A program made the translations under genes and the position numbers. DNA of 63,992 bases, the filler included, from Aduncisulcus paluster (Eukaryota), in assembly GCA_024181965.1 (NCBI GenBank). It is 7 parts of 7 records of this genome, joined end to end, with 100 filler letters (N's around TTAATTAATTAA, not from the genome) between each part and the next. Parts side by side here need not be neighbours in the genome. Positions count along the whole stretch, not along the records: positions 31,829 to 39,221 come from BQXS01009748.1; 6 more parts are not named here. The stretch is one strand, 5' to 3'. Positions within the stretch are counted from its first letter, which is position 1, and each line of letters begins with the position of its first letter. The notes beneath the pieces are model-generated. The model was not told where the DNA came from and did no database searches. It saw only the letters and a list, made by a program, of their open reading frames with translations. Below, in pieces: positions 8,679-61,164 of the stretch.

Positions 8679-11600
8679 ATGAAATACCGATTATTTGTTA
8701 TTATTTTAATAATTTTACAATTATTTACCTTCATTTATTCCCTTACAATCTCAGGAGATTCTCCTACTGGAATCCTTTCAGGTTCTTCCAAATGTTTACA
8801 GCATTATCTATTTGAAATAGAATCGTCAAGTGATTATACCAATGGAATTGTTGTATCACCAACTAATGCTGGTTGCTATTATATTCAAACTTCACTAGCC
8901 AATATTCCCGGTATTTCGATTGATGTCGGTTCTAATTCAATTTTAATTGTTGAGAAAGCATTATCCTCCACCGAGGGCATTTCTCTCATCGCTGAAGAGA
9001 TTGTTATTGTTGATGATGATCCAGATAATTTTGTCAGTGGGAATTCTGTGTCTATATCTGCCTCTGGTTCAATATCCATTCAAACTGACTCATTTTACCC
9101 AAATACTTCCATGTCAGCAATTGATAACCTTGATATTGTTGCTAATACAACGCTAGACCTCTCGGCTAACCCTACATTCTCGGCCAGTGATATTTCTGTT
9201 GATATGAGCTCCGTTGATTGTATCTTTGACAATGGAATGTTTATTGGAGACGTTTCTGTTTCATGCGATAAGATAGAAGTTTCAGAAAGTGTTTTTGATG
9301 GGGGAATTCTTCAATTTGTTGCTACCGATGAGCTTCTTCTTTCTAGTAATCTTACAGTTCCTTCACCGACAATTTCTAATACCTACAACTCATTTGAATG
9401 TAATTCATTATCTGTGACCCATCTCCAACAGCTTACAGGAAGTGTTGTTATTACAGCCACCACTTCGGCGGCCTTCAATGATGATTTTATCTCATCAAAT
9501 GGTTCTATAACAATGGATGTTGATTCTCTGGGGACTCCCACCTCANNNNNNNNNNNNNNNNNNNNCCTTGATATTGTTGCTAATACAACGCTAGACCTCT
9601 CGGCTAACCCTACATTCTCGGCCAGTGATATTTCTGTTGATATGAGCTCCGTTGATTGTATCTTTGACAATGGAATGTTTATTGGAGACGTTTCTGTTTC
9701 ATGCGATAAGATAGAAGTTTCAGAAAGTGTTTTTGATGGGGGAATTCTTCAATTTGTTGCTACCGATGAGCTTCTTCTTTCTAGTAATCTTACAGTTCCT
9801 TCACCGACAATTTCTAATACCTACAACTCATTTGAATGTAATTCATTATCTGTGACCCATCTCCAACAGCTTACAGGAAGTGTTGTTATTACAGCCACCA
9901 CTTCGGCGGCCTTCAATGATGATTTTATCTCATCAAATGGTTCTATAACAATGGATGTTGATTCTCTGGGGACTCCCACCTCAAGTTTAACCTTGTCTGG
10001 TAAGAAAGGACTCTACATTACCTCCAGCAATGGTCTGTCAAATTCCACATACCTTTNNNNNNNNNNNNNNNNNNNNTTCAGAAAGTGTTTTTGATGGGGG
10101 AATTCTTCAATTTGTTGCTACCGATGAGCTTCTTCTTTCTAGTAATCTTACAGTTCCTTCACCGACAATTTCTAATACCTACAACTCATTTGAATGTAAT
10201 TCATTATCTGTGACCCATCTCCAACAGCTTACAGGAAGTGTTGTTATTACAGCCACCACTTCGGCGGCCTTCAATGATGATTTTATCTCATCAAATGGTT
10301 CTATAACAATGGATGTTGATTCTCTGGGGACTCCCACCTCAAGTTTAACCTTGTCTGGTAAGAAAGGACTCTACATTACCTCCAGCAATGGTCTGTCAAA
10401 TTCCACATACCTTTACTCATTCGTCTCGCCCTCTGGGCAAGTTCGAGTGAATATGTCAGGTTCAATGGAAGGAGTTGACTCTATTTCGGGTACTTTTGTC
10501 TACGTTAACACCACCTCTACCGAATCTATGTCCTTTGGTAATGTTACTTCCTCATCAGGATCCATCATTCTCATTGGATATGACATTGCTTCTTCTAGCC
10601 CCACTTCTAATGAAATATCTTGTGCCACAACTTGCTCTATCCAGGCGACAAATTCCATTAATGTCGGAGATATTATTAGCGGAGAAAACGTCACCATCCG
10701 AGCCACAGACAGTAATATCACCCTCAAAGATATAACCATTGAGGATGGGTCTGCAACAATTACAAGCGATTCAGGTTATATTACCTTAGATGAGCTCAAT
10801 TTGTCTGATACTCAACTCTTGGAAAAATCCATCACTATTTCCTCATCGGGTGCTCTAAATGTGGGCACCAAGTTAATGACCAACGGTGGAAAAGTTCAAT
10901 TATCATTTTCGAACTATTTATCTGAGATTTCATCTGTCCAGACGAAAGGAGGAGATGTAGAGATTACTTACTCTGGTTCCAATTCAACGGCCCCCATTTT
11001 TTCCTCAATAGTCACTAACGGTGGAAATATCAAGGTAGATACCGATAGTGCTGCTGTTCAACTCAACTCCATATCAACAAACGGAGGAAGTCTCTCTGTG
11101 ACTGGTCTTGTGGCCATGGGAGATGATTGGGATATGGTTAATGGTGATATTACAATCAATAATGATATTAGCGGATCTTTAACCTTTAATCAGAATATTA
11201 ACTATCCAAATGCAATCAAAATTACCGTTAGCGATAATACAACAATCTCTTTCTCAGCTGCTCTGTACGCAACATCCCTTAGTATTACATCATCCAACTC
11301 AGTGTCTTCAGTTACTTTCTCTGCTTCTGCTACTCTCACTGGAAGTGCCTCATTCATCGACTGTGATGTTTCTGTGACATCTGGAACATTTTCTGCTGAT
11401 TCTATTTCCTTCGATGGATCCACGAAACAATTATCTCTCTCCAGCTCAGCAAAATTTCTTTCAGCAAATGCTTTTTCCATTTCTGCAAATATTATCGACT
11501 TTGATAGTTCTGGAACATCGAAAGTCGCATCCGCTTCGATCAGTGTGAATAGTGCATCAACCATAAAGGAACTTGAAATCTTATATGGTTCATTCATCGT

Positions 11601-14600
11601 TGTTTGTGATAACCCCAGTGGTGCAACGGTTAATCTAGTATCCGTATCTACAGATCTAACCTCTCAGCTCGTTAGCATTACATCCCCTTATTCTTCTGAT
11701 TTCTATCTCTCTGATGTTAGTTTTTACTCTCCCACCACTATTTCTTCCAGTGCTAGTGTTACTCTGAACGATAGTTCCTTTTATTCTTTGACTATTGACG
11801 CTACCTCTGTGAATGTGAGTACATCTTCCATTTCTGTAACCAATGATACCGTTGTTACATGTGATAATTTCACCTCTTTGTCTGGTATTACAAGTGATTC
11901 CTTGTCTATTGTTGGTTCTGACATCAAAATTGGTGGGATACTAAATGTTATTGTTGTCTATGTTGAAGGAAGTTCCCTTGGTCCCGTTAATGGAGTAAGT
12001 TCTGTTAATTTTGGAAACTCCAACACGACATCTATTGATATCATTGTTGATGATATTCTTGATACCAGCGATGGAGTGTTCATTTTCAGAACAACCGATT
12101 ATATTTACTTTTCTATCTCTAATGGATGGTCGTATCAATATTCTTCAATCACAGCATCTTCTTCCGTGGAGTTTGATTGTCAGGGAGCTCTCTCCATTGA
12201 AAAATCCTTGAGTATACTTACAGCCGACCTCATTATGGCTTCATCCACTTCTATTTCCTCTTCTCAATCCATCAGTGCCTACAATATTAGCATAACTACC
12301 GACACACTTACCGTTAATGAGGCGTTGAAAGCTACTGACACCTTGACCATAGTTGCTTCCTCTGCCTCGTTTGCCCCTGCCTATAAACTAACTGCTCCCA
12401 CGGCTTCCATCACTGCTCCTTCCTACATTTCCTATGGTTCTATTGCTGTCGGAGATTTGACAAGTACAAGTTCTACCAACAATTTCCTGGGAACATCATC
12501 AGGGTCTATTTCAAGCCTCACTGTGACTGGTGATGTCACATTTGCTAATGCTCCCTATTTAGAGATAGATTCCCTCAATATTTCTTCATGTTCAGACTTT
12601 GTTGTGAATAATCCAATCAAGCTTGCCTCTGCCACAATCTCAGCCACTGATATCACCATATCTTCGAATATATCTGTTAGTGATATTTACACTGGTTTGC
12701 TTTCCTTTACTTCTGTGAATTCTTTTCTACTCGATACAAGTGGGTCAATTTCTGGATCTTACAAAAACGTTACAATAACATCAGCCAGTGATATTGAGCT
12801 TCGTGGTGACATTTCAACAAATAATACACTATCGATATCCACAGATACAGCATTGGAACTTACCGGTTCTGAACTTAGTGGTGGGACAACTTCCCTTGTA
12901 TGTGGTGGTAATTATACAATGGATTCGAGTTCTTCTGTGTCTCAAACAAGCTCATCAGGAACTCTCTCTTTCACTGCCGTATCAGGTGAGTTTAATGGAA
13001 CTGTTACAGCCTCTGGAACCACATCGATTACTTTGTCAGATGCCATGACTGGAACCAATGGAAAAATCACAAGTAATAATTCCCTCACTATCAATGCCAC
13101 TATAATTAATACCTCAAATGACTTTTCTGGAAATTCACAACTCCAACTGACATCCTCATCTGGAGGTATTCGCGGAAATTCTTTTAACTCAGGAGCAGGA
13201 AATGTTATTATCAACTCAAAAGGTACCTTTATCACCGATGATGCTACAACCCCTCTCATCTCTTCGGCTGGTGGAGATTTTCGTGTGACAGCTCCTTGCG
13301 TTCAATTGAGTAGTTCAAAGAACTTAACTGCTGATGCGGAGGTTAATTTCACCCTTAATTCTTCGACTCAAGGTTCAAATATTTCACAAAATATTGTTTC
13401 CTCAACCATTTCCATCAAGCAATTAAAGAACACTTTAGATATTAATTCCAAGATAGGTGATACACTTGCGACATCCATTGCCATATCAGCCCTTGAACTT
13501 AATATTGGTGAATCTTCTCCACAATCTAATACCATGAAGGTCTTTGGAAGCACTTCTCTTGGTGTCATCACTTTGATAGGAATAGATTCCCTCAATATCT
13601 ACAAAGATTTGGACTCTTCTGCTGAAGTTTCTGCTGCAACTATTACCCTTCAATCAGATGATGAAGTTAATATTTATACATCATCCATTTCTGGAAAATC
13701 TTGTATCATAAACGCCGATAGTTTCTCGTCAGAATCTAGTTCTTCCTTATCCTGTAGTACTTCGCTCACAATGAGTATTGGAACTGAAGCTGATATCGCC
13801 TTTGATATTGATGAATCATCAAGTGATTTCTCTTTCATTAATCCACTTGCATCCTTGACAATTTCTGGTGATCTTGACTTCTACTCAACGACTATTAGTG
13901 CCGATTCCATCTCAATTGACGATGGTCAAATCGATAGTTCATCCATATCACTGACTTCGAATGGTGGGGGTATCTCAATCAACAATGCATCAGAAATTAC
14001 TGGTGGTAGTCTCTCTTTGTTTACAACCAGTGGTTCGGGAGATTCTGTTAGTATCCAAAATTCTTCTATTGTTGATATTACCTCCTCTCTCCTCATTAAT
14101 TCAGTTGGCGATGTGACCATTGGTTCCAACGTTTCGATTGAGGCCGACGGAAATGTAACAATATATAGTGAAGCTCTTCAAGTTGCTTCCTATGTTGCTA
14201 GTGGTGCTACCCAAAAAATAACTCTCGATGTTACATCACTCACGCTAACAGGACAATTATTAGCTAAAACAATCGTTGGTAATGCTTCTAGTACTATTGA
14301 CATAAGTGGAGGAACTCTTACCTCAACAACTCTGAGTCTACCTTCTTGTTCTTCCTTTTCTTCATCTTCCTCATCCTCTTCACTCACTGCTACGAGTAAT
14401 ATTACGATTGAATGCACTGGAGCAATCACGTTTTCTTACTTAAACTCTGGAATTACCTTGGGTTCTCTTTCCCTCACAAGTCTTAATAGCTATATTTATC
14501 TGGGAAATTCAGTGAATTCATCGGAAATTCTCCTTTCTGCTGGTGGAAATGTTACTGTTAATGACTCATTAGACAGTAGTGGAAATGTAAATATAAGTGG

Positions 14601-16613
14601 GGCAATTATTTCTGTTGCTGATATTGAATGTTCTAAACTTACTATTGAGGGTGATGACAATGTGTCGTTGGCCAATGTTGATGCATCTGGCAATATCATT
14701 GTTGAAAGTGGGAATGATCTAAGTTTAGGATCCGGAACTTCTATTTCTGGTGGTAGTATGACCTTGTATTCAGATACCTCAATAATTTCTCAGGGTAATG
14801 TTACTTTTGAATATTCTGGTGTGTTCTCTGCCACATCTCCAAGTGTTCAGTGTTCTGGTTGTACACTCTCAACCTCATCATCTGTTGAGGCAAATGTCAA
14901 GTCAACATCTTCTGATCTGGAGTTCGGTACCATCTCGGTGACCAGTGGAACAACTTCATTTACTTCGGCTTCAAACATTAGTATAGGAAATGGAACAGAT
15001 CATTCATGGGATGGATTGTGCCGTTTTATAACTCCAAATAACAAAACCCTCACATTTTCTAATAATTTTGTTGGATCTCAGTTAGAAATTGTTGGATCTA
15101 GTTCCTTCTCTGCCACTGGCTCTACTTTCGACCTGTCCACATTTAGTGGGACTCTCGATTCCATTGAAGTCCTTTCTCTTGTTATATCTTCATCCATCAC
15201 CGTATCGACTTCAAATGATATCACAATATCGCAATTAACAGTGACAAATTCTTCATCCTCTGCCGTCGCTAGTTTAACTTCAGGAGGTGATGTCGAAATT
15301 GCTAATCTTTATGAAGCTGACGATTTGACTATTTCTGGAGGTACCTGCTCAATTGGAACTGCCAATAGCTCCGGCTCAACCTTTCTCACTTGTGCATCAC
15401 TTGAAGTCACATCCCCTTCCACCTTTGGCGATATATCCGGTGTTATTACCGGCGATTCAACAATAGATGGTTCTTTGACATGTTCTGGAGATGCTACCTT
15501 TACTTTGGGTTCCAACACCTCATTTGCAGGGATTGAAGCAAATGATATTGATATTACTTCATCATCAGGAACCTTTGATTCAACTTATCTTACTGCATTA
15601 AATGCTCTGTCAATTACTTCAACAAGTGCATCTGCTATGGGATCATCAACATCTTCATGGTCTGGTGCTACATCCGTAGATATCAGTGTTACACTTGCAA
15701 ACATTGAATTGCTTGATTTGTCTTCCCAAAATGGAAGTGTTTCAGTTCAACAAACCTCGGGTACGGTTAACATCACTTCTATAACTTCTGGTTCATCGTT
15801 ATCCATTTCTTCCACCAGTGGCTCATTATCATCAAGTACTAGCGGTAGTTGGTATGCTGATGGTGACATTACTATTTCTGCTACTGGATCTGGTGGAACT
15901 GTTGACCTGAAAACGGTTGAATCCGCGCTCGGCTCTGTGACGATTAATGGGAAATCTGTTACTGTGGCCGGTTACCTCTCTGCCACTACCTCTGGTAAAG
16001 CTGTTTCCGTTACCTCCACCACAAGTTTTACTGGAACCAATGTTGTTCTTAACTCTCCATCTGTGAGCATCACGGCTCCAACTGGGATTTCCCTCGGAAC
16101 TATTACTACAATAGTCACATCTCTAAGTCTCAATACTAATGATTCACTTACTTTCAACAATGAACTAATTAATTCTGGTTGTGCCTTGACCCAGCTTGCC
16201 TTAGTGGGAGCTTCTGTTGAAATTAATAGTGGCATAATATGTACAGCAGCTGCCGTAACTGTTACATCTGGATCTTTTACAAAGTCTTCTACCAGTAATC
16301 TTTCTGTTTCAAGTCTTGATGTCGTTTCCTCTGGTGTCATTACCGTCGGGGGGCCTATTATTACCGCAACCACACTTAGTTTGAAGAGTACAAGTACCGA
16401 CAATACTTCCGCTCGATGTGCTATCCAGTCAGATGGTTCCCTTTCCAGTGCATCTGGTCCCATCACTGTTGATAGTTATTACACGTCTATTGCAGCTTCT
16501 GTCAGTGCATGTTCTAGTACCGCTCCTGTTGATTCCGATGGAGACATTAGCATTATACATCGTGGCTCGGCAACATTTGTCATCAACAGTGGCATTTGTG
16601 GTGATACTGTCAC
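8679..16613 (+). CDS. Giant Ser/Thr/Ile-rich secreted or surface protein, predicted beta-helix/adhesin-like; 3'-truncated
   Basis: ATG at 8679 starts a signal peptide (MKYRLFVIILIILQLFTFIYS). The ORF becomes continuous once the gap-flanking duplicates are collapsed (~2,380 aa) and runs into the contig end. It has a repetitive I-T/S-I-x-S strand pattern. Confidence 0.8.
9128..9983. repeat. Duplicated sequence flanking 20-N gap (unmerged overlap)
   Basis: 9128-9545 matches 9566-9983 across N 9546-9565. Confidence 0.9.
9719..10414. repeat. Duplicated sequence flanking 20-N gap (unmerged overlap)
   Basis: 9719-10056 matches 10077-10414 across N 10057-10076. Confidence 0.9.
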
Positions 16614-16713
16614 NNNNNNNNNNNNNNNNNNNNNNNNNNNNNNNNNNNNNNNNNNNNTTAATTAATTAANNNNNNNNNNNNNNNNNNNNNNNNNNNNNNN
16701 NNNNNNNNNNNNN
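16614..16713. other. Artificial contig linker
   Basis: N44-TTAATTAATTAA-N44, giving stops in all six frames. Confidence 0.98.
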
Positions 16714-21806: not shown

Positions 21807-22585
21807 TCACCTCGGGTTAGAAAAGGCTTTTCTCAAAGAATAGAATTTTTTCTCAAAAGCTTTCTTAACAGATCTATCGAAACACACAAATACGACACAT
21901 TTTAATGTTTTATCACTTGTCTTCTTAATCCAATCGATTGTAGCAGTAACAGCAACTTCACAGGCACGTTTTACATCCTCCGAATAAGCATATGCACCAC
22001 ACGAGATTGCTGGAAAAGCAATAGATCTCATCTTAAGTCCGTGGAGTTCATCGAGACAAGATGTATAGCATGAAGCGAGTAAAGGATCATTCATTTTTGA
22101 CATTGGGCCAACCGTGTGGAATATAGAGGCACAAGGGAGTTTAAATGATTCAGACATACAACATTCTCCATATGAACATCCCCTTGGGTACTGCTCGACC
22201 ATTTGTCCAACCAATTCTTTTGCACCAGCACCACGATGGATGAATCCATCTACTCCACCACCTCCCCTCAATCTAATGTTGGCTGCGTTAACAATGGCAT
22301 CAACACCAAGGGTACAAATGTTCCCGGGGAATATGACCAATTGTACTCCCTCAACAATAATGGAATTACAACTTTCCAACTGAGCAAGAGTCTCCTTTGA
22401 GTGGGAATGCTTCATTTTTTCCTTAATTCTTTTAATCATAGAAACTCTGTCAAAGGTCTTGGCAGGTAGGGTATCTCTCCTTTCCTCCCCAAACCTGAAA
22501 ACATTTACATGAATCATTCATGGTGGTAAAATCACATAAAGATACGTTTTAGTGCTCAATTATCCCAAAAAAAAGTAACATACAT
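21807..22585 (-). CDS. MacroD-type macrodomain protein (ADP-ribose / O-acetyl-ADP-ribose hydrolase)
   Basis: DAIVNAAN..L.GGGGVDGFIH, HTVGP and SIAFPAISCGAY. The start is probably AT|G split by intron 22495-22583; an unspliced ATG exists at 22517. Confidence 0.88.
22495..22583 (-). other. Putative spliceosomal intron (89 nt)
   Basis: GTATGT...TTTTCAG on the minus strand. Splicing yields ATG TTT GGG GAG in the macrodomain frame. Confidence 0.6.
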
Positions 22586-32654: not shown

Positions 32655-33794
32655 TGTAGAAAACGGAAGAAACAACCAACCAACCAATGGAAGATAGAAA
32701 TAGTCTTAGAGTGTACAAATTACGAACGAATGAATGATGAAGATGCGATTGACCAGCAGACTAGGAATGCAAATAGAAGGATGGTGAGGAATAACAAAGA
32801 GAATAATAAATGAAAAAGAACGAAAGGAAAAGCAACAGAAATATTTTCATGAATCGGGGAAACATACTGAAATAGCGGGCCGAACACAAAAGATTCTCTC
32901 GTAGTTGTAACGAAAAGGGCTGTTCTTTCAGCTTCAGTGTGAGTGTGGACAGAAGTAAGGATATTTCATGCTTAAATTATTTTTGCACAGCATTTTATTC
33001 ATTTTATTTATTTTTGATATTTTTATTATATTATATATTGGACACTTCCAGTTTCTAGTTTGAAATTTATGAAATTCTGTCGCACACGAGCTTTGCGAGG
33101 TTCATGCGTTCATCGTTTGAAAGCACAATATTTGGAATAGTGTGATATAAAATTTTGGATAGTCTTGCAATTGTCCGTTGTTGACATCAAAGGATCGAAA
33201 AGTCGCCATTTGGATGNNNNNNNNNNNNNNNNNNNNCAGAGGTGAGAGTCTTGTCGTCTTGTTTACGTTTGTGCCCAGATTTCGTGGTTTTTGATACTTT
33301 TGATGTAGATTTGTCTTTGCCCATTGTAGAAAACGGAAGAAACAACCAACCAACCAATGGAAGATAGAAATAGTCTTAGAGTGTACAAATTACGAACGAA
33401 TGAATGATGAAGATGCGATTGACCAGCAGACTAGGAATGCAAATAGAAGGATGGTGAGGAATAACAAAGAGAATAATAAATGAAAAAGAACGAAAGGAAA
33501 AGCAACAGAAATATTTTCATGAATCGGGGAAACATACTGAAATAGCGGGCCGAACACAAAAGATTCTCTCGTAGTTGTAACGAAAAGGGCTGTTCTTTCA
33601 GCTTCAGTGTGAAGTGTGGACACTTCCAGTTTCTAGTTTGAAATTTATGAAATTCTGTCGCACACGAGCTTTGCGAGGTTCATGCGTTCATCGTTTGAAA
33701 GCACAATATTTGGAATAGTGTGATATAAAATTTTGGATAGTCTTGCAATTGTCCGTTGTTGACATCAAAGGATCGAAAAGTCGCCATTTGGATG
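32567..33794. repeat. Gap-flanking duplicate with differences between copies
   Basis: 32567-33216 vs 33237-33794 differ by a 93-nt insertion and a 1-nt indel. Confidence 0.9.
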
Positions 33795-34167: not shown

Positions 34168-34356
34168 GATCTGTGGACGTATAAAATGCAGATTGACCAA
34201 CCTGCTGCCATACTCGCTCTTCCCTTGAGAAAGTGATAGACGATGTGTTCGCTATGGTATTTCATGAAGTGATTGACGTAGATCCTCCGATCAACTTGGA
34301 TACGATGCGGCAGTCGACTCGATCGGATCGCTGTAAATTATATACGTCCACAGATC
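34168..34356. repeat. 20-bp inverted repeat pair (19/20 match) spanning 189 bp
   Basis: GATCTGTGGACGTATAAAAT at 34168-34187 and ATTATATACGTCCACAGATC at 34337-34356. Confidence 0.75.
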
Positions 34357-34681: not shown

Positions 34682-36799
34682 ATGAGCAAGAAATATATTT
34701 TAACATTACGAAATAAGGAAGAGATGGACGATTTCCTTATGATGGCCTTCTTATATGGGAAAAGTAAGTTCCTTCGAAAACATGGCAGCTTTGATGATTA
34801 TCACATCTGTGCCCTGGATTTCGAAGCATTTCTATCTGGGACGAAATATCCCGATAAAAGAATAACGAAATATGGTTACTATCTCTGTGAATTATCGAAA
34901 ACCCAAAAGAGAAAGGGAATTGTGAAGCCTCAATCACCTAACCATAAATTCTGTGAGATCGGGTTTGCATTTTCTTCTGTTCGGGATGTTTGCACGCAAT
35001 CTTTGATGTCTGATGTGGATTCCTTTGTGTATGCTCCCATTGCTCCTCTCTCTCATTCGTGTGATCATTCAGATATTTCCAGCCCCGAGCATTCTTCACT
35101 AGAGCTGAAACCTATCCCAAACTTTGCCACCCTTCGAGATGACTTTGAACTTGTTCATTCGCAAGGAATCTCTATATCCTGCTCTATATTATCGTCTGAC
35201 ATCACAATGAAGAATCTTAAAAAGTCCTATTTCAAACGAATGATTGATCGTACAACGAAAATCCATGGAATCCCATTCGACTGTGCCCAAGAAGCTCCCA
35301 TCTCTGTCGAGGGGACTCCCGAGCTGTTCTTCTACAGCTGTGTGATCTATGCAGGATATAGCATTCTTGTGCGATGTGATCGAAACTTCCGCTATGAGGA
35401 ATCGTTAGATGTTCCATCGAGCATTCATCATTTTGTCCGACCATCGATGACATGTCTCTCCAAGATTCCCATCAAATACCTTAAAGCCGATGCATTCGTC
35501 ATCCTCACACAAATGTTTGGATCTCCAACGGGCGATCCTGATCCATTGAGCATCTTCGAGTGTTGCATGTGGGCGAAAGGTCCTTCCATGGAGAAAAATG
35601 GTCTCATGGCCGCCCTTTCCAAAATCATTGGTCTGATCCAATCCTCCTCTGTGAAGTCTCCTGGAGGACCGTATGAGTTCGAGTATCTCTCCTTCCTGCG
35701 CGATGAAGGAATAATCGGTTCGTCTGTGCAGTATTTGGGCACTCGTATCCGTGAATGGTGTATTCGTTGCATGCTTTTGTTTTGCAACAATATCCACGAT
35801 CCACTCGATGCAATTGCAATGGACCTTGGCTTTGTTGGGAAGAAATGTCAACGTGCAAGAATATATAGCATGTTTGAGACAGCCATCGATGGTCTTCATA
35901 AATGTCGCCATCATGACATATTCATGCACAACGGGTCTGTATTGAAGGAACGTGAGAAGAGGGAAAAGATGGAACTGAAAGCTCAGCGTGAGATGGAAGA
36001 AGCTGCTCAAGCAATCCAAGAGATGGAGATCTCAGACGGTGTGAATGAAGCAGAGATCATTGGACAAGACATTGGACAAGACATTGGACAAGACATTGGA
36101 GGAAAGAAAAGAAAGGAAGGAAAGGAAGGAAAGGAAGGATATGGATTATTATGTGTTGATGGCTGCCTTCCTTCCCATGAGAGTCTTGGAAGTGTTGTTC
36201 TCGATAGCAGTTATGATGATAGTGTGGATACCCACAGTGGAGATGACATTGGACATTCGTCCAGGGATAACGATGAGTCTTCTTTCAGCATTGATGATTC
36301 TGATGTCATGTGTTCATCGTCTTCTGATGGTTGTATTTCTGATGACGAGCTAATCAAACGACGTGAAGAAGAGCGAAAGAAGGAAGAAGAGGAAAAGTTG
36401 GAAAAGGAACGGAAGAGGAGAGAGGAAGAGGAGAGGAAAGCCAAGATCATACAATCGTGGAAACCTCTGCACGAACAGAATGGATACAAGCGATCCTCGT
36501 CGAATTGTCCATACAAAAGCAAGCACAGACACATGCATTGTGGAGGACAGGATGCAGCTGCGACAGTTGTGTCCGTTGTGTATGCTTTGAAATATGCGAC
36601 TGAGTTGTTGGAACTCGAAGACGCTGAAGATGTCACCATATTAAAACAATGGGGAGAGGAGAAAAGAGAGAAGAGACGTGAAACGAAACGAGCAGAAAAG
36701 GCAAAACACAAGAAACGTTCACGATCCAAGAAAGGAAAACAGCAAGATAAAAATGATACAGAGGGGGGGTTGTCTAAAAAGGATAAAGAAATTAAATAA
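34682..36799 (+). CDS. DEDDh (DnaQ-like) nuclease, Maelstrom-like
   Basis: 705-aa ORF with ordered motifs ALDFEA, CEIG, KIHGIP, an Asp-containing GDPDP segment and C...H..HCGGQD. Confidence 0.6.
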   Translation: MSKKYILTLRNKEEMDDFLMMAFLYGKSKFLRKHGSFDDYHICALDFEAFLSGTKYPDKRITKYGYYLCELSKTQKRKGIVKPQSPNHKFCEIGFAFSSVRDVCTQSLMSDVDSFVYAPIAPLSHSCDHSDISSPEHSSLELKPIPNFATLRDDFELVHSQGISISCSILSSDITMKNLKKSYFKRMIDRTTKIHGIPFDCAQEAPISVEGTPELFFYSCVIYAGYSILVRCDRNFRYEESLDVPSSIHHFVRPSMTCLSKIPIKYLKADAFVILTQMFGSPTGDPDPLSIFECCMWAKGPSMEKNGLMAALSKIIGLIQSSSVKSPGGPYEFEYLSFLRDEGIIGSSVQYLGTRIREWCIRCMLLFCNNIHDPLDAIAMDLGFVGKKCQRARIYSMFETAIDGLHKCRHHDIFMHNGSVLKEREKREKMELKAQREMEEAAQAIQEMEISDGVNEAEIIGQDIGQDIGQDIGGKKRKEGKEGKEGYGLLCVDGCLPSHESLGSVVLDSSYDDSVDTHSGDDIGHSSRDNDESSFSIDDSDVMCSSSSDGCISDDELIKRREEERKKEEEEKLEKERKRREEEERKAKIIQSWKPLHEQNGYKRSSSNCPYKSKHRHMHCGGQDAAATVVSVVYALKYATELLELEDAEDVTILKQWGEEKREKRRETKRAEKAKHKKRSRSKKGKQQDKNDTEGGLSKKDKEIK

Positions 36800-58209: not shown

Positions 58210-61164
58210 ATGCCAACTAGATATAATTGTGGCACAAAATCTCGAACTCAGACATCTATGGTTCTCAATTTATCTGATATAGAACATCAGTCAGAAAAGT
58301 CACCTGTGGAGCCATATGCCAAAAAAGAAGATGAATTATACTCTAAATGTGATCTTTTTGAACAATTATTGATGGAAAGACCAAGAAATTTTACAGACTC
58401 TTCGGTTGAACTTAAAAAATTTGTCTCTTCTCTCCCCAAACTCGATTGGGTTTTTTATCAACATGTTACAGATCTTCTAATTGGAATACCCCCAACTAAA
58501 GGACGTTTTCAATATCATTCTGCCTATTCTTATGCCAGTTGTATATTTTTGAATGGATACGAATTTCTCACTAATTATCAGGGATTTGACGAATGTTACA
58601 CCTCTTTATACAAGTCTATGAAAGCATTAGAAATTTCAAAAGTCTCGATGGATGACTTTCAGAAACATTGGTCCGTCATTTGTAGCAATTTACATTTTAT
58701 CCATAGAATACCTCTATTTTACAGGTATAAACTTCACAAAGATTCTTTAGTCGAAGGAATTTGCAAATTAAAATCACTTTTGAAGATTCCCGAGTCATCT
58801 GGTTACATTCACAGGATTTTACAAATGGAGCGCAAAGGTCAGGTCTACATCAGTCGTTCCAACGATTTATGCGGTATTTATTATGAATCATCTGATTATA
58901 TCCCCACTGACGAGTCAGATTGGTGCGACGAAGACTTTCCTTTCGGCCATCTCGTCTTGCATCCCCTGTTCGCCTTTTCTGACGGCTCTCGAGTTTTCGT
59001 TGTCTACCCAAATTGGTCTGTGGATAGAAAAGACTTCAATCCTCACATAAAGTTTCCTGATCTGCGGCCTTCTTACATCCACTCTTGCTTTGACAATCCC
59101 GACAAAGCTCCCAGCAGCGGGTCCACACGTACAACGATGTGTGTATTGTTCAGTAAGATTGAAGCTGCTAGTTCGTTATGTTATGTTCCACCCGAGTTAT
59201 GTGAAAAATTCGAGATATCTCCCGTTCCTGTTGACATTTCTATTGACTCCCTGAAAGATTCCTCAAAGAGCAAGCGTATTGATTATTCAGGCTATTTAGC
59301 AATTGAAACAAGTATTGCGAATCTGTATGAGACAGATCCATCCTCATCTATGGGAAAATCCATTGAAATTGAACTCCCCAAGTCTGTCAAAAGGGTGATT
59401 CGAAAGAAGCCAGTCAAGCCAACCACCCCTTCCAAGCTGAATTCCTCTTCCTCCTCCAGCTCTGAAGATGAAGAGGAATATAGTTCTTCCTATTCTTATT
59501 CCTCTTCTTACTCTTATGAAAGGGAAAGAAAAGAAAGTGAGGAGGAGAAAGAGAAGCCTCGTAAACTTACAGAGGAGGATGAAGATGCAAGTATGGGTGG
59601 ACCTGAATCCTCTTGTATGAAGGAAATGACGACACAGATGAAAACTTTGAAATCCGTTTTCGAAGAGCTTCAACCAATGCTCCCCCCTGAAGATGCTCGT
59701 ATTCTTTTTAAGTTAGAGATGGATCTTCAATCTGAGATGCATAGTCTTGAACGATACACCGATGATCTTCAGGAAAAGAATAGAAAATACAAAGGGACAA
59801 AATCTCAATTGAAAAAAGAAAAATCAAAACTCCAGAAGAAAGAAGAAGAATTTGTCGAAAAAAAGGGAAGAATTGAATCAATCAAAACAGAAGAACATGA
59901 TGTGCAATCAAAGGTTAAAAAAGCACATGTAATCCGTGACAAACTTATGAAAGAAGCTTATTCTATCTCCGAGATCAATAGAGACATTGAAGAGAATGAT
60001 AGCATGACGCAATCCACGGCACAGTCTGTTAGAACTGTTGTTAGAAAGACTCAAGAGAAAAAAAAGAATGTGGCTCTGGCAGCGGGAAGTTTGGAGATGC
60101 ATATTGGTGATATTTACAATGCCAGACAGAAGGTAGATGCCATGAAAGCAAAGGACTTAAGGGTTGCCAAAGAGAAAAAGAGATTGCAACAACGCCATCA
60201 ACAGCAAAATGCGATGTCTATGGAGTTCCATATGGACGCTACCAAGGTTCAGTGTGACATCAAGCAAAAACAGGAACAAATGGAGAAGGATATATCAAGC
60301 TTTGAGGCGACAAAGGCCAAAGAGGAAATTGAACTCAAAAAAAGGATGCGTGATTTCTCTAATGTCGTTGTTCCATCATTTTTTACCATGTTCAAACAAG
60401 ATCAATTTGCCATGGAAGGGTATGATTCTTTTAAAAAGGTAACAAGTTTTGCAGATTGCTCAACAAAGTTAACTGCAACCGAAGTCGATTCTTTCATTAA
60501 ACCTTTATTTGCTCGTTCAGATACTCTTATTCTCGGACATGCTCGTGATCAGAGGGTTTACAAAGGTCCTTATACAAAATTCGAGGTTACAGGTGCAATC
60601 AGAATTGAGAATCCTTTCCTTTTCAAGCAATATTGTGATGCTCGTGCAGATATTCGCCGTAAATATGGAGATTGTCTCATCAAAGATGCCAATAGGAATC
60701 CAAACAAGGTAAAATCATTTGGGAAATCCAAAGTACGCCTCTGCACTGATGTTGATGAGCAACTGTTATTCCATGGTTCTTCCTTCGATATTATGAAGAA
60801 AATTGCAATCAGTGGATTCGATTATAGAGAAAGCCCAACTGATACCAAAACTGCTTTTGGCCGAGCCAATTATTTTGCAGAAGTTATTGAGAAAGCTGAT
60901 CAATATTCGAGGCCAAAGAGTGACACCGATGAGACGTACACTGTGATGCTGGCCCTAAATATCATTGGTCCTAAGCCCAAGGTTTTAGCTCCAAAAGAAA
61001 CCACTTCAACAGCTCTACGGCCTGAAAAACTCCCCGACGCAGAGGATGGAAAAGATCGATTGTACACCAGTGTTATTGGTCAATTTACATACCGTGAATT
61101 TATTCAATTTGAATTGAATTCATGTTATCCATTATTCATTGTGTTTTACAAGAGATTGCCATAA
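58210..61164 (+). CDS. PARP catalytic domain protein with central coiled-coil
   Basis: RIENPFLF..Y, LLFHGS, FGRANYFAE..KADQY and YREF give the H-Y-E triad; long heptad region upstream. Confidence 0.9.
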   Translation: MPTRYNCGTKSRTQTSMVLNLSDIEHQSEKSPVEPYAKKEDELYSKCDLFEQLLMERPRNFTDSSVELKKFVSSLPKLDWVFYQHVTDLLIGIPPTKGRFQYHSAYSYASCIFLNGYEFLTNYQGFDECYTSLYKSMKALEISKVSMDDFQKHWSVICSNLHFIHRIPLFYRYKLHKDSLVEGICKLKSLLKIPESSGYIHRILQMERKGQVYISRSNDLCGIYYESSDYIPTDESDWCDEDFPFGHLVLHPLFAFSDGSRVFVVYPNWSVDRKDFNPHIKFPDLRPSYIHSCFDNPDKAPSSGSTRTTMCVLFSKIEAASSLCYVPPELCEKFEISPVPVDISIDSLKDSSKSKRIDYSGYLAIETSIANLYETDPSSSMGKSIEIELPKSVKRVIRKKPVKPTTPSKLNSSSSSSSEDEEEYSSSYSYSSSYSYERERKESEEEKEKPRKLTEEDEDASMGGPESSCMKEMTTQMKTLKSVFEELQPMLPPEDARILFKLEMDLQSEMHSLERYTDDLQEKNRKYKGTKSQLKKEKSKLQKKEEEFVEKKGRIESIKTEEHDVQSKVKKAHVIRDKLMKEAYSISEINRDIEENDSMTQSTAQSVRTVVRKTQEKKKNVALAAGSLEMHIGDIYNARQKVDAMKAKDLRVAKEKKRLQQRHQQQNAMSMEFHMDATKVQCDIKQKQEQMEKDISSFEATKAKEEIELKKRMRDFSNVVVPSFFTMFKQDQFAMEGYDSFKKVTSFADCSTKLTATEVDSFIKPLFARSDTLILGHARDQRVYKGPYTKFEVTGAIRIENPFLFKQYCDARADIRRKYGDCLIKDANRNPNKVKSFGKSKVRLCTDVDEQLLFHGSSFDIMKKIAISGFDYRESPTDTKTAFGRANYFAEVIEKADQYSRPKSDTDETYTVMLALNIIGPKPKVLAPKETTSTALRPEKLPDAEDGKDRLYTSVIGQFTYREFIQFELNSCYPLFIVFYKRLP

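Follow-up and report, generated by a model that had tools for sequence, protein, structure and literature searches.

The MAEL domain was defined by Zhang et al. (2008), in whose alignment the versions that retain the catalytic DEDHD (DEDDh) residues come only from Entamoeba and the trypanosomatids; in supplementary file 1 of that report, the landmarks of these DEDDh-retaining protist rows read hhDhE, P.E(I/L)G, hHGI, C..H and HC(A/G)..DA. Here we describe a gene of the free-living fornicate flagellate Aduncisulcus paluster, located at 34682..36799 (+ strand) in a stretch of nuclear DNA of 63 992 nucleotides, filler included, which is referred to below as the window. The predicted product presents ALDFEA, FCEIGFA, KIHGIP, KCRHHD and HCGGQDAA in the same order as the protist MAEL rows, in a comparison made by eye only. 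The best reading of this protein, to which we give a probability of roughly 45 %, is that it may be a MAEL-type DEDDh 3'-5' exoribonuclease, very divergent and carrying large inserts.

EhMael of Entamoeba (EHI_192630) is an Mg/Mn-dependent exoribonuclease (PMC4408791) and, together with its paralogs, is a protist protein in which the DEDD(h) acids occur alongside the Glu-Cys-His-Cys (ECHC) residues of the zinc site; the Aduncisulcus protein has candidates for both sets. The wording of the Entamoeba rows, hhDFE,.EIG, hHGI, C..H and HCGLQDA or HCALSDA (Zhang et al., 2008, supplementary file 1), is matched here. The two differ, however, in that similarity between them is undetectable by HMMER or Pfam, and the activity and zinc binding of the Aduncisulcus protein are putative. 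The Entamoeba domain is moreover compact, with a length of about 215 residues and about 10 residues between C..H and HC, whereas the Aduncisulcus landmarks span 580 residues and the corresponding gap is about 200.

TbRIF4 (Tb927.10.8880), a DEDDh RNA interference (RNAi) factor of 490 amino acids with D294, E296, D392, H472 and D477, turns duplex small interfering RNA into single strands, a role established both genetically and biochemically (PMC3359990). In common with the Aduncisulcus protein it has protist DEDDh motifs, a similar size and the wording HCAL.DA, and it is a MAEL homologue according to Zhang et al. (2008). There is no significant sequence similarity between the two, however, the domain is N-terminal in Aduncisulcus but C-terminal in RIF4, and nothing ties the Aduncisulcus protein to RNAi.

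In the account of Bombyx Maelstrom given in PMC4408791, D122 and N124 lie on strand beta1, the zinc ligands are E137, C290, H293 and C302, and R306 occupies the Exo III position. The register C302-x3-R306 corresponds to C620-x3-D624 here, and the order of the candidate ECHC residues is also shared. In animal Maelstrom, which has an HMG box and no exonuclease activity, the DEDD acids have been lost, whereas the Aduncisulcus protein keeps the acids and contains neither an HMG box nor any other Pfam domain. The C-terminal exonuclease of the arenavirus (Lassa) nucleoprotein (NP) is, like EhMael, an active DEDDh exoribonuclease, and it also has an ECHC zinc site (PMC4408791; PMC7968707); Lassa NP differs from the protein described here in its viral origin and in its fusion to an N domain that binds RNA. 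According to PMC7968707, Maelstrom shares the zinc finger with the exonuclease (ExoN) of arenaviruses, and none of the other cellular ExoNs in its alignment has it. Finally, the Gfd2/YDR514C-like DEDDh_C proteins (PF21762) belong to the same DEDDh superfamily and provide the nearest language-model clusters (see below). Among the literature matches listed, none joined Maelstrom with Aduncisulcus or other metamonads, which is not proof of absence.

Candidate catalytic motifs and their conservation

A full HMMER pass with residues 1-421 of the protein against 1.84 billion representative proteins returned three proteins, namely the query itself, one spurious repeat protein and a paralog of 488 amino acids (E 1.9e-33). 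The paralog, an A. paluster hypothetical protein, is the sole relative among those representatives, and shares 157 of 481 aligned positions (33 % identity). The open reading frame (ORF) and every motif quoted in an initial annotation of this DNA were found by translation where that annotation had placed them. The frame and its candidate catalytic motifs are as follows, invariance being in respect of the paralog.

34682..36799, + strand: whole ORF, a single open frame of 705 codons plus stop; lineage-restricted A. paluster protein
34811..34828, + strand: ALDFEA, residues 44-49, candidate Exo I (D46, E48); D46, F47, E48 and A49 invariant
34949..34969, + strand: FCEIGFA, residues 90-96, candidate strand beta2 with invariant E92; compare P.E(I/L)G of the MAEL rows
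35252..35275, + strand: TTKIHGIP, residues 191-198, 'hHGI' motif opening helix alphaA; H195, G196 and I197 invariant
35531..35545, + strand: GDPDP, residues 284-288, proposed earlier as Exo II; D287-P288 invariant, role uncertain
35570..35596, + strand: WAKGPSMEK, the most conserved block, with E304 as alternative Exo II acid; the Exo II block of the DEDDh profile aligned here in the a3m run
35786..35809, + strand: NNIHDPLD (N370-I-H-D373-P-x-D376), invariant; could be Exo II or else the conserved 'DT' turn that follows beta5
36536..36565, + strand: HCGGQDAAAT, candidate Exo III (H619, D624) with C620; H619, C620 and G622-Q-D-A-A-A-T628 invariant, placed on Exo III by hhalign

The blocks that are invariant between the two paralogs comprise D46-F-E48-A, C91-E92-I-G, H195-G-I, D287-P, W297-A-K-G-P-x-M-E304-K, E358-W, N370-I-H-D373-P-x-D376, E399-T-A-I-D, C408-x2-H411-D and, towards the C terminus, H619-C620-x-G-Q-D624-A-A-A-T. 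By residue type, invariance extends to 15 of 36 Asp, 13 of 32 Glu, 6 of 19 His and 6 of 17 Cys. All nine proposed catalytic and zinc residues are invariant, as is HGI, for which the per-residue rates give a chance of about 1.5e-4, a figure obtained by multiplying the rates by hand and for a choice of residues that was partly post hoc.

When written as an ordered pattern (D.E .. E[ILV][GAC] .. HG[ILV] .. C..H .. HC...DA), the motifs are present in the protein and in the paralog and in none of 200 000 composition-preserving shuffles of each, although these shuffle figures overstate the significance because the pattern was written after the sequences had been seen. Only one of 29 window ORFs of at least 200 amino acids, the gene itself, contains the pattern.

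The D-x-E of Exo I is represented by D46 and E48, which are both invariant and aligned to the Exo I Asp and Glu of a DEDDh profile (described below), and the H-x4-D of Exo III by H619-x4-D624-A, which is likewise invariant and placed on the profile's Exo III. The assignment of Exo II is less secure. GDPDP had been put forward as Exo II, a proposal that we have downgraded as there are four acidic candidates without change in the paralog, namely D287, E304, E358 and D373. The Exo II column of the profile fell on E304 in one hhalign run and on P288, beside D287, in another. A Glu at this position would not be unprecedented, because Exo II is written as D/E in PMC7968707.

Candidate zinc residues

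The residues considered as zinc ligands lie on either side of a long charged insert.

35900..35917, + strand: KCRHHD, with C408-x2-H411 as proposed zinc Cys and His; C408, H411 and D412 invariant, spacing as in the MAEL C.aH consensus
35939..36451, + strand: low-complexity insert rich in acidic, basic and Ser residues (~420-590), without conservation in the paralog
36506..36535, + strand: CPYKSKHRHM, the Cys/His cluster favoured in the initial annotation; C609 and H615/H617 not conserved in the paralog

The cluster just upstream of Exo III forms part of CPYKSKHRHMHCGGQDAA (residues 609-626). C609 and the His residues within CPYKSKHRHMHC are not conserved in the paralog, in which C609 is replaced by Lys, and the likelier zinc ligands are therefore C408 and H411, upstream of the insert, rather than C609. 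The predicted zinc candidates thus become E92, C408, H411 and C620. E92, C408-x2-H411 and C620 occur in MAEL order and are invariant in the paralog. As C408 and H411 precede the insert, it would split the zinc tetrad, if the tetrad exists.

A beta2 Glu of the E92 type is common in generic DEDDh domains (19-sequence alignment), so that the discriminating power of the 'ECHC' tetrad lies in its other three residues. Among generic prokaryotic DEDDh domains, a Cys after the Exo III His was found in 0 of 19, and a C..H within the 40 residues upstream also in 0 of 19.

Comparison with a DEDDh profile and language-model neighbours

Four bacterial genomes supplied 19 loci of the RNase_T family, from which a DEDDh profile was built here for comparison with the protein by hhalign. 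In the slice of residues 36-105, D46/E48 aligned on the Exo I of the profile, with 2 of 100 shuffles scoring as high, and in the slice of residues 180-232, HGI aligned on the profile hGI with a score of 21.9, which was reached by none of 100 shuffles. With columns chosen by paralog conservation only (206 columns), one colinear alignment extended from residue 34 to residue 645 at an E of 0.21, which is not significant. In a core-only version of the comparison, four of the five catalytic columns lay on invariant D46, E48, H619 and D624; of 200 shuffles, 3 placed at least four columns in this way.

In the Atlas, the three best language-model neighbours of the paralog were Gfd2/YDR514C-like DEDDh_C clusters (score 0.89), and further rows included arenavirus NP (rank 18, 0.85) and an RNase_T cluster. 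A single family or clan accounts for all of the ten best family-bearing matches of the paralog, and DEDDh-type entries make up two of its ten structure rows, with template modelling (TM) scores of 0.28-0.39. The profile comparison and the language-model neighbours agree, weakly, with the evidence of the motifs.

Weighing the assignment

A considerable body of results weighs against a MAEL-type nuclease. The family has two members only, both from one species. The protein, the paralog and eight fragments were without a match at E ≤ 10 in hmmscan against Pfam, whose families include PF13017 (Maelstrom), PF00929 and PF21762, although HMMER filters lose most matches above an E of ~0.1 and a very weak Pfam match could escape. 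No Pfam match was obtained for PF17290 (arenavirus NP), and the single match of a ninth fragment of 46 amino acids was to a chance toxin family (E 0.27). Scans of NCBIfam and PHROGs gave 0 matches, and phmmer and hmmsearch against the PDB with the protein and two profiles gave chance or low-complexity matches, or none. Word-indexed searches that started from the protein, from a two-sequence profile or from the paralog brought up no additional relatives, and scans of metagenome and viral contigs no confirmed one.

The profile comparison itself was not significant over the whole length (probability ~1 %, E 0.045 and 0.12). The slice of residues 590-645 aligned on Exo III, but 26 of 100 shuffles scored as high, the slice of residues 350-415 aligned to the wrong region of the profile, and 16 of 200 shuffles scored at least as high as the core-only alignment. 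AlphaFold2 models of the two paralogs, made from two-sequence alignments, had a mean predicted local distance difference test (pLDDT) of 35.4 and 38.8, and a Foldseek search of the PDB with the better model returned nothing at E ≤ 0.001. The Atlas scores lie under the 0.9 bar and count as leads only, with 148 shared features, and a third of shuffled proteins also reach ten concordant matches; with residues 1-440 as the query there was no usable feature match. The nearest Atlas feature clusters are Gfd2/YDR514C-like and not Maelstrom, no Maelstrom cluster being among the matches listed. To these points may be added the Exo II acid, with its four candidates and no single assignment, and the distance from C408-H411 to C620 of 208 residues, compared with 77 in the paralog and ~10 in the published MAEL rows.

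With no significant profile match and no usable AlphaFold model, the protein is not established as a member of the MAEL family. The initial annotation of a Maelstrom-like nuclease with both DEDDh and ECHC residues thus stands in part: Exo I, the beta2 Glu, HGI and Exo III are invariant and in MAEL order, but a profile match was not obtained. The order, register and conservation of the motifs are nonetheless specific enough that a MAEL-type DEDDh nuclease is the leading reading.

A rather unlikely alternative is that the protein belongs to a different lineage of DEDDh 3'-5' exonucleases, such as a Gfd2/YDR514C/QIP-like one, without the MAEL zinc site and with Cys and His residues that are lineage-specific. 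The ranking of the Atlas clusters, with Gfd2/YDR514C-like clusters ahead of arenavirus NP and Maelstrom not among the matches listed, speaks for such a protein, as do the generic nature of the beta2 Glu, which leaves three discriminating residues, and the distance in sequence between C408-H411 and C620. In addition, about one-third of all Cys and His residues are invariant between the paralogs, and hence the conservation of C408, H411 and C620 by itself is weak evidence for a zinc site. On the other hand, PF21762 and PF00929 were without a Pfam match in the same way as the Maelstrom family, and H-C-x3-D-A with an upstream C-x2-H is a signature of the MAEL rows that was absent from all 19 of the generic prokaryotic DEDDh domains examined. 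The restriction of the zinc finger, among the cellular ExoNs aligned in PMC7968707, to Maelstrom also argues against this alternative.

It is unlikely that the protein is no nuclease at all. It would then be lineage-specific and quick to evolve, with a different fold or largely disordered, and its short DEDDh-like motifs would be due to chance or to another purpose; a non-catalytic scaffold derived from a nuclease would also come under this reading. Blank library searches, a whole-length profile comparison that was not significant and a motif pattern defined post hoc would all be compatible with such a protein, as would the two AlphaFold models, which consist mostly of low-confidence helices with hardly any beta sheet. 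The distance from Exo I to the furthest Exo II candidate, which at ~330 residues compares with ~100 in TbRIF4 (D294 to D392; PMC3359990), points in the same direction. However, the low pLDDT says little about the fold because it is expected from a two-sequence alignment, and five short motifs occur in canonical order, all of them invariant in a paralog of 33 % identity. Two slices, moreover, beat 98-100 % of shuffles at colinear places of the DEDDh profile, and the language-model features, which are independent, indicate the same clan.

Possible mechanism

Our working hypothesis for a MAEL-type nuclease, as the motifs suggest it, is that D46 and E48 of Exo I, one of E304, D373, E358 and D287 as Exo II, and D624 would hold two Mg or Mn ions, and that H619 would act as general base in the removal of nucleotides from the 3' end of RNA. 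A structural zinc would be held by E92 on beta2, C408, H411 and C620, as in Bombyx Maelstrom. Several lineage-specific inserts would interrupt the domain, the largest of these being the disordered charged stretch of ~170 residues between C-x2-H and the helix that carries H-C-x3-D. The zinc site might then staple the two halves of the domain across the disordered insert by joining beta2 and the C-x2-H loop to the last helix.

The charged insert and the C-terminal tail

Residues ~420-590 consist of 18 % Glu, 11 % Asp, 10 % Lys and 11 % Ser; in the paralog their place is taken by a shorter stretch rich in Ser. Within the insert, at 36058-36139, there are in-frame tandem repeats of 12 nucleotides × 3.6, encoding GQDI, and of 9 nucleotides × 4.4, encoding KEG. 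A GenBank copy of the protein differs by one residue in the first of these repeats, which suggests allelic or assembly variation. AlphaFold places only isolated long helices or coil at the insert. An intron as the explanation of the insert was rejected, as its 170 codons are open in frame and the coding sequence of the paralog is interrupted there too, by an insert of unrelated sequence.

The GenBank counterpart is 'hypothetical protein ADUPG1_006189, partial' of A. paluster, which has 99 % identity and 626 amino acids and ends ...GGQDAA, because the contig of the GenBank model ended there. Positions 36560-36799 of the window add the last 79 residues missing from that model, among them a Lys/Arg-rich tail and the helix that follows the candidate Exo III.

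36632..36796, + strand: Lys/Arg-rich C-terminal tail, residues 651-705; Lys 29 %, Arg 11 %

A basic tail also closes the paralog, and that of the protein described here may aid RNA binding or nuclear targeting.

Genomic surroundings

The products of the adjacent ORFs are of ordinary eukaryotic kinds (a PP1-type phosphatase, a RING finger protein, Rer1, macro-domain and PARP proteins, and kinases), and there is no second copy of the gene in the window. One sequencing run, of uncertain kind, contains the gene, and no RNA run is among those listed for it. A scan of 25 window ORFs of at least 200 amino acids revealed no reverse transcriptase, and 14 of the 25 were without a Pfam family. A very long ORF of 2211 amino acids at 10030-16665 (+ strand), which is broken by assembly gaps, has no Pfam domain. 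The same window encodes a macro-domain protein at 21807-22517 (- strand) and, at 58210-61164 (+ strand), a protein of 984 amino acids with a PARP catalytic domain; each of the two may represent one half of an ADP-ribosylation system.

Two pairs of direct repeats of 100 % identity (32700-32942 with 33370-33612, and 33039-33216 with 33617-33794) flank a gap of 20 Ns at 33217-33236, and look like a scaffolding duplication and not biology. A 20-nucleotide inverted repeat, with arms at 34168-34187 and 34337-34356 that are 95 % complementary and separated by a spacer of 149 nucleotides, lies ~330 nucleotides upstream of the start codon. An origin of the gene from a transposable element is unsupported, with terminal repeats absent around the gene and the only large nearby repeats being the identical duplicates beside the assembly gap.

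Significance

This two-member family is invisible to Pfam, to HMMER among the 1.84 billion representatives and to AlphaFold, which illustrates a limit of these methods and means that the call is drawn solely from motifs. If the motifs mislead, the gene is an ordinary orphan encoding a lineage-specific protein.

Giardia, a relative of Aduncisulcus, has Dicer and Argonaute. A role of the Aduncisulcus protein in a small-RNA pathway is possible, purely by analogy with TbRIF4; the initial annotation had hinted at a defence against retroelements. We consider it improbable that fornicates keep an ancient, catalytically complete MAEL-type exonuclease, its zinc knuckle split by an insert of ~200 residues, that matures small RNAs for Argonaute. 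If that were nevertheless true, the ancestral active form of Maelstrom would extend to the Metamonada, which would support its presence in early eukaryotic RNA silencing.

Protist MAEL domains that retain the DEDDh residues are an argument for the descent of animal Maelstrom from an active nuclease, and a third, deeply separate protist lineage with both sets of residues would strengthen this history of Maelstrom. If the MAEL-type reading is right, the Aduncisulcus protein would be a very divergent metamonad member of a known family and, in a relative of Giardia that is free-living, a nuclease that might serve in RNA silencing.

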